From Escherichia coli (lineage in GTDB: Bacteria > Pseudomonadota > Gammaproteobacteria > Enterobacterales > Enterobacteriaceae): 64,000 nucleotides of DNA. Below, one piece after another: positions 9,986 to 40,506 of this stretch. How positions within the stretch are numbered: the first letter of the stretch is position 1; every line of letters begins with the position of its first letter. Position numbers and translations under genes: made by a program. The stretch lies in the NCBI RefSeq assembly GCF_024502345.1, contig NZ_JALDNN010000001.1, one strand, 5' to 3'. The notes under the pieces are model-generated. The model did not search any database. It saw only the letters and a list, made by a program, of their open reading frames with translations, and was not told where the DNA came from.

Positions 9986-11539
9986 ATGGATATCATTGGC
10001 GGACAACATCTACGTCAAATGTGGGACGATCTTGCGGACGTTTACGGTCATAAAACGGCGCTGATTTGTGAATCCAGCGGCGGAGTCGTTAACCGGTATA
10101 GTTATCTTGAGTTAAATCAGGAGATTAACCGCACGGCAAACCTGTTTTATACGCTGGGGATTCGCAAAGGCGACAAGGTTGCACTACATCTCGACAACTG
10201 CCCGGAATTTATCTTTTGCTGGTTCGGGCTGGCAAAAATTGGCGCGATTATGGTGCCGATTAACGCCCGCCTGTTACGCGAGGAAAGCGCGTGGATCCTG
10301 CAAAATAGCCAGGCGTGCCTGCTGGTGACCAGTGCGCAATTCTATCCTATGTATCAACAGATTCAGCAGGAAGATGCCACTCAATTGCGGCACATTTGCC
10401 TGACAGATGTGGCACTTCCCGCTGATGATGGCGTGAGTTCGTTTACTCAACTGAAAAATCAACAACCTGCCACCTTGTGCTATGCACCGCCGCTATCGAC
10501 TGACGATACGGCGGAAATTCTCTTCACCTCCGGCACCACCTCCCGACCGAAAGGTGTGGTGATTACCCATTACAACCTGCGCTTCGCTGGATATTACTCC
10601 GCCTGGCAGTGTGCACTGCGTGACGATGACGTCTACCTGACGGTAATGCCTGCGTTTCATATCGATTGCCAGTGTACTGCGGCGATGGCGGCGTTTTCTG
10701 CCGGGGCCACCTTTGTGCTGGTCGAGAAATACAGCGCCCGCGCCTTCTGGGGACAGGTACAGAAGTACCGCGCCACCGTTACCGAATGTATTCCGATGAT
10801 GATCCGTACCTTGATGGTGCAGCCGCCTTCAGCGAACGATCGGCAACACCGCCTGCGGGAAGTGATGTTTTATCTCAACTTGTCGGAGCAGGAAAAAGAC
10901 GCATTTTGTGAACGCTTCGGCGTTCGCTTGCTGACGTCTTATGGGATGACGGAAACCATTGTGGGCATTATCGGCGATCGCCCTGGCGATAAACGACGCT
11001 GGCCGTCGATTGGTCGGGCGGGGTTTTGCTACGAAGCGGAGATCCGCGACGATCACAATCGCCCGCTCCCGGCAGGTGAGATCGGTGAAATCTGTATTAA
11101 AGGCGTACCAGGGAAAACCATCTTCAAAGAGTATTTTCTCAACCCGAAAGCCACTGCGAAAGTACTGGAAGCCGATGGCTGGTTACATACCGGCGATACC
11201 GGATACCGAGACGAAGAGGGCTTTTTTTATTTCGTCGATCGCCGCTGCAATATGATCAAACGCGGTGGCGAGAATGTCTCCTGCGTGGAGCTGGAAAATA
11301 TCATCGCCACCCATCCGAAAATTCAGGACATCGTGGTTGTGGGTATTAAAGATTCGATTCGCGATGAAGCCATCAAAGCATTTGTGGTGCTGAATGAAGG
11401 TGAAACATTGAGCGAAGAGGAATTTTTTCGCTTCTGCGAACAAAATATGGCGAAATTTAAAGTGCCCTCTTATCTGGAGATCAGAAAAGATCTGCCACGT
11501 AATTGCTCGGGGAAAATAATTAGAAAGAATCTGAAATAA
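9986..11539 (+). CDS. caiC: Crotonobetaine/carnitine-CoA ligase, adenylate-forming family (517 aa)
   Basis: Contains the AMP-binding signature [10 protein letters not shown]; track ORF starts 5 codons earlier, start chosen at MDIIGG. Confidence 0.88.
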
Positions 11540-13803: not shown

Positions 13804-17025
<3,222 letters not shown>

Positions 17026-17042
17026 GGCTCTTTTACTCCTGA

Positions 17043-39792: not shown

Positions 39793-40506
39793 ATGAATGT
39801 TAATTACCTGAATGATTCAGATCTGGATTTTCTCCAGCATTGCAGTGAGGAACAGTTGGCAAATTTCGCCCGATTGCTCACCCATAATGAAAAAGGCAAA
39901 ACTCGCCTCTCCAGCGTACTGATGCGCAACGAACTGTTTAAATCGATGGAAGGGCATCCCGAGCAACATCGCCGCAACTGGCAGCTGATTGCTGGAGAAT
40001 TACAGCATTTTGGTGGCGATAGTATCGCCAACAAACTGCGCGGACACGGTAAATTGTATCGGGCCATTTTGCTCGATGTTTCAAAACGATTGAAGCTGAA
40101 AGCCGACAAAGAGATGTCTACGTTTGAGATTGAGCAACAGTTACTGGAACAATTTCTGCGTAACACCTGGAAGAATATGGACGAGGAACATAAACAGGAG
40201 TTTCTGCACGCGGTCGATGCGAGGGTGAATGAGCTGGAAGAGCTGCTGCCGCTGCTGATGAAAGACAAATTATTGGCAAAAGGCGTGTCGCATTTGCTTT
40301 CCAGCCAACTGACCCGCATTTTACGCACCCACGCAGCAATGAGCGTACTTGGGCATGGTTTGCTGCGCGGCGCGGGGCTGGGAGGCCCTGTAGGTGCGGC
40401 ACTAAATGGGGTTAAAGCGGTCAGCGGCAGCGCCTATCGCGTGACGATTCCAGCCGTACTGCAAATCGCCTGCCTGCGCCGGATGGTTAGCGCCACTCAG
40501 GTCTGA
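39793..40506 (+). CDS. yaaW: Uncharacterised protein YaaW (237 aa)
   Basis: Full-length ORF between yaaI and satP. Confidence 0.88.
   Translation: MNVNYLNDSDLDFLQHCSEEQLANFARLLTHNEKGKTRLSSVLMRNELFKSMEGHPEQHRRNWQLIAGELQHFGGDSIANKLRGHGKLYRAILLDVSKRLKLKADKEMSTFEIEQQLLEQFLRNTWKNMDEEHKQEFLHAVDARVNELEELLPLLMKDKLLAKGVSHLLSSQLTRILRTHAAMSVLGHGLLRGAGLGGPVGAALNGVKAVSGSAYRVTIPAVLQIACLRRMVSATQV
39804..40319 (-). CDS. mbiA: Antisense overlapping ORF within yaaW (mbiA/htgA-like), doubtful coding status
   Basis: Open frame wholly inside yaaW on the opposite strand; start set at the MRVSWLES Met; Ser/Cys-rich low-complexity product. Confidence 0.3.
   Translation of the reverse strand: MRVSWLESKCDTPFANNLSFISSGSSSSSSFTLASTACRNSCLCSSSIFFQVLRRNCSSNCCSISNVDISLSAFSFNRFETSSKMARYNLPCPRSLLAILSPPKCCNSPAISCQLRRCCSGCPSIDLNSSLRISTLERRVLPFSLWVSNRAKFANCSSLQCWRKSRSESFR

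Follow-up and report, generated by a model that had tools for sequence, protein, structure and literature searches.

The long open reading frame antisense to yaaW in the window, by which we mean the whole 64,000-nucleotide stretch of Escherichia coli DNA analysed here, is mbiA of E. coli, formerly known as htgA or htpY. It lies wholly inside its host gene; most probably it is a passive by-product of that gene and, at the most, a proto-gene. The mbiA/htgA frame is an already described and already known feature, and a textbook candidate for bacterial gene birth by overprinting. Our analysis adds that the ten "extra" codons of the window are the normal state in E. coli, with K-12 in the minority, that a Tyr73Phe replacement in YaaW is enough to account for the birth of the frame, and that the sites discriminating between the two frames show no detectable protection of the antisense protein.

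The antisense frame is the mbiA locus

The original prediction had described a 174-codon frame on the strand opposite yaaW and named it mbiA/htgA-like. The open reading frame listing of the window gives exactly such a frame, running on the minus strand from GTG at 40328 to TAA at 39804 (Table 1), and the name is confirmed by the K-12 MG1655 record, in which mbiA (b0012, 10830..11315, 161 codons) occupies the same position, strand and phase inside yaaW (b0011, 10643..11356) and encodes a product matching that of the window at 161/161 residues. Synteny is likewise that of K-12: yaaW stands between a DUF2541 gene (yaaI) and a GPR1/FUN34/YaaH-family gene (satP), in the order yaaI-yaaW-satP, with dnaK beyond. 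The host gene differs from its K-12 counterpart at 10 of 714 nucleotides, all of them third codon positions. The K-12 stop TGA is replaced by TGG at codon 165 of the window, through which the frame gains 10 codons before the TAA at 39804-39806, and the remaining 3 of the 174 codons are N-terminal, between the GTG at 40328 and the ATG at 40319 used in K-12. Alignment with K-12 thus shows the K-12 length of 161 codons given in the original prediction and the 10-codon 3' extension to be exact; the count of 174 codons is right for the frame, but three of them come from a GTG that lacks Shine-Dalgarno (SD) support, leaving 171 codons for comparison with K-12.

Table 1. Features of the yaaW-mbiA locus and further embedded antisense frames, in window coordinates.
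Feature	Position	Strand	Details
mbiA/htgA frame, long allele	39804..40328	minus	174 codons plus TAA, GTG start
yaaW, host gene	39793..40506	plus	237 aa; Pfam DUF3944 and Ubiq_cyt_C_chap
GTG, first mechanical start (codon 1)	40326..40328	minus	anti-SD duplex -0.9 kcal/mol
ATG (codon 4), annotated K-12 mbiA start	40317..40319	minus	SD-like GGGTG 40330-40326, -3.9 kcal/mol
Codon 165, TGG (Trp); TGA in K-12	39834..39836	minus	yaaW nt 42 CTC/CTT, YaaW-silent
Codon 149, TGG here; TGA in 248 E. coli genomes and E. albertii	39882..39884	minus	yaaW nt 90 ACC/ACT, YaaW-silent
Codon 107, AAA (Lys)	40008..40010	minus	opposite YaaW Phe73 (TTT, 40009-40011, plus)
TAA stop, long allele	39804..39806	minus	derives from YaaW codons Asn4-Tyr5
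Candidate sigma-32 -10-like CCCCATTT	40404..40411	minus	76 nt upstream of GTG; read by eye
Antisense ORF across whole dnaK (37070-38986, minus)	36992..39028	plus	678 aa; 800 bp from mbiA
Antisense ORF opposite carB	15838..17172	plus	444 aa
Antisense ORF opposite ileS	24225..25436	plus	403 aa
Antisense ORF opposite dnaJ	35917..36633	plus	238 aa

The third codon positions of the yaaW and mbiA frames coincide, and positions 1 and 2 of one frame are positions 2 and 1 of the other. The same phase is given for htgA/yaaW by Delaye et al. 2008 (PMC2268670), who also discuss the pair as a case of overprinting, as the original prediction had stated. In this arrangement an antisense stop is possible only at NNT|CAN or NNY|TAN in yaaW, which requires either a T-ending codon followed by His or Gln, or a codon with T or C in third position followed by Tyr. 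Because positions 1 and 2 swap between the frames, strong constraint on YaaW leaves most of the antisense protein frozen, and the literature cautions that sequence conservation under such an overlap "might be solely an artefact" (PMC4182739).

The naming of the host protein is itself uneven. RefSeq/PGAP calls it "msyB: acidic protein MsyB" in the sampled complete E. coli genomes (41/41 of the intact matches listed), and the NCBIfam model NF007593 (equivalog, 237 positions) bears the MsyB name, while the K-12 record reads "putative enzyme-specific chaperone YaaW". MsyB is a different protein of 124 aa, and its name on NF007593 looks wrong.

Birth of the long frame in Escherichia

We compared 17 yaaW loci from a scan of one genome per species. 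In the mbiA phase, E. albertii has a stop-free run of 183 codons, and E. coli together with two cryptic Escherichia lineages one of 199-209 codons. The phase is interrupted by 5-9 stops in Citrobacter, Salmonella, Kluyvera, Pseudescherichia and two further Enterobacteriaceae, where the longest uninterrupted stretch measures 59-102 codons. Among the loci compared, the long open frame is therefore confined to Escherichia.

The sole stop common to all non-Escherichia relatives with a 714-nt yaaW (7/7) is a TAA at codon 107, which arises from YaaW His72-Tyr73 (CAT TAY). In Escherichia, residue 73 of YaaW is Phe (TTT), and the antisense codon reads AAA. The other stops in the outgroups come from third-position T variants that are scattered and specific to individual lineages. 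A single conservative replacement in YaaW, Tyr73Phe, thus suffices to account for the origin of the long frame, as it did away with the one stop that the seven relatives have in common. On this comparison, the frame became long in the Escherichia lineage with the change of Tyr73 to Phe.

Stop alleles among E. coli strains

Of 5,426 complete E. coli genomes, 5,424 have a yaaW match, with 95-100% identity; the other two genomes gave none, and three of the 5,424 matches lie on records labelled as plasmids, which are probably mislabelled or chimeric replicons. Thirteen E. coli sequences spanning this identity range showed three stop positions for the antisense frame, at codons 149, 165 and 175. 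Alleles were counted with 55-nt queries centred on the variable base, in which every 28-nt seed covers that base, and the totals for the nt-42 and nt-90 pairs (5,399 and 5,420 of 5,424) account for nearly every genome. At yaaW nt 42, C leaves TGG at codon 165 (the long form) in 3,898 genomes and T gives the K-12-type TGA in 1,501; at nt 90, C leaves TGG at codon 149 in 5,172 genomes and T gives TGA in 248. Three of three sampled genomes with T at nt 90 have C at nt 42, and if all 248 do, the long allele with its stop at codon 175 is present in about 3,650 of 5,424 genomes, or about two thirds. The window carries the commonest allele, and the K-12 stop is a minority state.

E. albertii shares the codon-149 stop, and nt 42 is mostly T and sometimes C in the outgroups, which indicates that these YaaW-silent sites toggle repeatedly. 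Just seven YaaW-silent single mutations can place a stop in the frame, namely three transitions (nt 42, 90 and 513) and four transversions, and two of the three transitions are common E. coli alleles. With so few silent mutations able to close it, the frame would stay open passively. Stops in close relatives, raised in the original prediction as evidence against function, are real for the end of the frame, where the last 10 codons are lost in 1,501 E. coli genomes and the last 26 in 248 genomes and in E. albertii, but within the first 148 codons none was seen in 16 Escherichia sequences.

The boundaries of the frame are not conserved in close relatives, the 3' end being variable (three stops) and the start codons kept, which does not fit a functional overprinted gene. 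A different explanation is nevertheless that MbiA is a genuine, very young overprinted gene translated from the ATG at 40319, in which the first ~145 residues are functional, as a modifier of biofilm, and the tail is free in length. We consider this unlikely. In its favour, all stops found fall in the last 26 codons, both candidate starts (GTG and ATG) are kept in 16/16 Escherichia sequences, and the silent stops possible at codon 8 (the third transition, sought on two haplotype backgrounds) and at codon 13 (a transversion) occur in 0/5,426 genomes. However, conservation of the starts and of the surrounding sequence follows from the constraint on YaaW, and Salmonella keeps the peptide VRKMRVSW despite a broken frame. 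We also rejected the missing stops at codons 8 and 13 as evidence of selection: a rough scaling of the polymorphism rates of the 16 sequences gives a neutral expectation of absence of ~0.7 per silent transition and ~0.9 per transversion, making absence likely at each site even under neutrality.

It is improbable, in our view, that MbiA is a real proto-gene with low-level translation and a functional N-terminal core of ~145 residues too young for purifying selection, in which toggling of the stop between codons 149, 165 and 175 would give lineage-specific isoforms that modulate biofilm differently among phylogroups.

One pig isolate, PS2Canimalfeces12 (L032, NZ_CP180600.1 1757414-1759223), has IS1X2 inserted in yaaW after about codon 28, leaving two pseudogene fragments; this strain tolerates the loss of both yaaW and the antisense frame.

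Selection on the two frames

Using 16 Escherichia sequences and their consensus as background, we sorted the observed variants and all possible single mutations in the frame by their effect on each of the two proteins; the counts were made without a tree. Changes silent in both frames were observed at 69 of 162 possible transitions and 9 of 65 possible transversions. Those silent in YaaW and altering MbiA numbered 16 of 30 and 13 of 74, respectively, and those altering YaaW and silent in MbiA 0 of 23 and 5 of 97. Compared to changes silent in both frames, MbiA-only changes showed no depletion in these sequences (pooled odds ratio 1.45, Fisher p = 0.32 and 0.64). Changes affecting only YaaW, which served as a positive control, were depleted (odds ratio 0.13, p = 1e-5 for transitions), showing that the method detects constraint where it is present, in line with the strong constraint on YaaW within Escherichia (dN/dS ~0.02). 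The same pattern was obtained in seven relatives outside Escherichia, whose mbiA frame is interrupted, with MbiA-altering versus silent-in-both changes at 21/27 versus 114/159 for transitions and 28/66 versus 26/76 for transversions.

These comparisons detect no purifying selection on MbiA beyond that imposed by the host gene, which argues against a young gene under selection for its product. Where the frames can be distinguished, the MbiA frame behaves as unselected sequence, with a stop that varies across natural strains (codon 149, 165 or 175); its sequence would look conserved because YaaW (dN/dS ~0.02) freezes the first and second codon positions.

Evolutionary rate of yaaW in the overlap

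Slower evolution of yaaW where htgA overlaps it (nt 1-408) was described by Delaye et al. 2008 (PMC2268670) and counts in favour of a young gene. This argument was not reproduced with closer outgroups. Tajima relative-rate tests on nt 1-408 found no slower Escherichia lineage, the number of changes in Escherichia (m1) being at least that in Salmonella or Citrobacter (m2) in 18/18 triplets. YaaW dN/dS is indeed lower within Escherichia than among other genera (0.013-0.023 versus 0.020-0.072), but the non-overlapped 3' part of yaaW shows the same shift (0.016-0.041 versus 0.043-0.141), and the decrease is not specific to the overlap.

At synonymous sites, measured against three Escherichia lineages, dS is 0.55-0.90 in the overlapped part of yaaW, compared to 0.23-0.72 in yaaI and 0.17-0.30 in satP. 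In the 3' end of yaaW, dS is 0.85-1.02, somewhat above the overlapped part, and this lower dS in the overlap, a comparison over ~48 synonymous sites, is the only trend that favours extra constraint.

In yaaW nt 1-408 (39793-40200), Escherichia also exceeds Citrobacter in first- and second-position changes, for example 18 versus 5 (p = 0.007), and E. albertii compared with Citrobacter gives 23 versus 5 in the same part. The excess is absent relative to Salmonella and in nt 409-711; it may reflect a slow Citrobacter YaaW or a burst on the Escherichia stem that included Tyr73Phe.

Length of the frame relative to chance

The length of the frame was judged against a null model in which YaaW is recoded synonymously with the codon usage of 37 annotated genes from a near-identical strain (503025); this strain is not colinear with the window over 50 kb, and its 37 genes serve as codon-usage and control set only. 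In recoded YaaW, the longest stop-free run in the mbiA phase averages 126 codons, and a run of at least 209 codons, as observed, arises in 5% of codon resamplings and 10% of within-gene permutations. The open fraction of yaaW in this phase is the largest among the 37 control genes, a set in which one or two genes are expected at p <= 0.05. Across the 64-kb window, 11 open reading frames of at least 174 aa are embedded antisense in longer ones, among them those opposite dnaK, carB and ileS (Table 1). The mbiA frame hence exceeds chance only weakly, and its length alone is unremarkable.

The frame across dnaK serves as a control from the same region: an antisense frame can become very long without coding for a protein. 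Like mbiA, it is a long frame opposite a constrained gene, with apparent conservation derived from the host and no negative selection of its own; unlike mbiA, it lies in the codon-for-codon phase, whereas the third positions coincide in mbiA, and mbiA occurs in a single genus and has been the subject of some experimental work. The dnaK antisense frame was once included in Pfam as PF10712, "glutamate dehydrogenase" (bioRxiv 10.1101/724807). The frames opposite carB, ileS and dnaJ are likewise in the codon-for-codon phase, in which stops need rare sense codons.

Expression signals and predicted product

In front of the GTG at 40328 there is essentially no SD sequence, and in front of the ATG at 40319 there is a modest one (GGGTG), near the annotated-gene median in strength, although 18% of random antisense ATG/GTG sites are stronger. 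Annotated starts of the locus vary among strains and include CTG and GTG. Upstream of yaaW itself (39773-39792), SD complementarity is -0.2 kcal/mol, the weakest of 37 genes, though the protein is strongly constrained.

A scan of the minus strand upstream of the frame for the sigma-70 consensus found no promoter. For a sigma-32 promoter (CTTGAAA, a 13-15 nt spacer and CCCCATNT), only the -10-like element listed in Table 1 was found, with no matching -35 element by eye. According to Delaye et al. 2008 (PMC2268670), citing other work, htgA is not induced by sigma 32, and the same authors call its existence controversial; both points weigh against a young gene.

Transcription across the locus raises another explanation, in which the functional unit is a non-coding antisense transcript that tunes yaaW expression by excludon-type interference and the open frame is incidental. 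Among the divergent excludons called from RNA-seq coverage of E. coli, yaaW-mbiA is one listed pair (PMC12288877), a promoter lying within htgA/yaaW was active in vitro (PMC2731890), and the apparent lack of selection on the encoded amino acids would fit such a role. Against it, the region has no Rfam match at E <= 1, the consensus sigma-70 promoter is missing from the scanned minus strand upstream, and YaaW-silent sites in the overlap are not slowed compared to the neighbouring genes, so that they bear no mark of a conserved RNA element. Moreover, pervasive antisense transcription is common and mostly noise. We therefore regard a regulatory antisense RNA as a doubtful explanation, less probable than a young gene.

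The product of the frame contains 23.6% Ser and 9.2% Cys, as expected from the Ser/Cys-rich composition noted in the original prediction, has a pI of 9.6 and lacks His. Neither Pfam nor NCBIfam holds a family for it, and one genuine cluster of MbiA homologues was found among 5.8 billion proteins; three further protein matches were set aside, as they appear to be frameshifted or chimeric versions of this locus. Single-sequence AlphaFold2 gave a mean pLDDT of 27.8 and no confident fold, a weak result, as no alignment is possible. Codon usage of the frame scores -0.62 log2 units per codon, within the range of antisense frames (-0.79 to -0.25) and below that of real genes (+0.07 to +0.78), and is antisense-like. 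Both the codon usage and the lack of a predicted fold speak against a young gene, and the suggestion that the frame is "young or non-functional" agrees with this codon usage, the polymorphic stop and the apparent absence of purifying selection on the antisense frame.

Fellner and colleagues, who in 2014 reportedly renamed the gene mbiA, are said to have seen altered biofilm formation and metabolite levels in strand-specific stop mutants, and this reported phenotype counts for a young gene and against a mere by-product. Under the reading we prefer, in which the frame is a by-product and no more than a proto-gene, the region may be transcribed antisense, perhaps with low-level translation from the ATG at 40319. 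Translation, if it occurs, would yield a basic polypeptide rich in Ser and Cys, lacking structure and probably not maintained by selection.

Relation to other overlapping genes

Embedded antisense frames proposed to have arisen by overprinting are also known from E. coli O157:H7, where they include nog1/citC, laoB, ano, asa and pop. The htgA/yaaW pair is listed beside these overlapping genes (PMC4683798, PMC5960689), among the few pairs described in E. coli. The O157:H7 genes rest on RNA-seq, ribosome profiling and competitive growth, whereas the mbiA frame of the window is known from its sequence, and its comparative signal is neutral.

The gene status of mbiA bears on how seriously annotation takes long antisense frames. 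Our result favours a cautious reading and leaves existing knowledge unchanged. It also illustrates a general trap: in the phase occupied by mbiA, constraint on the host gene mimics conservation of the frame embedded within it.
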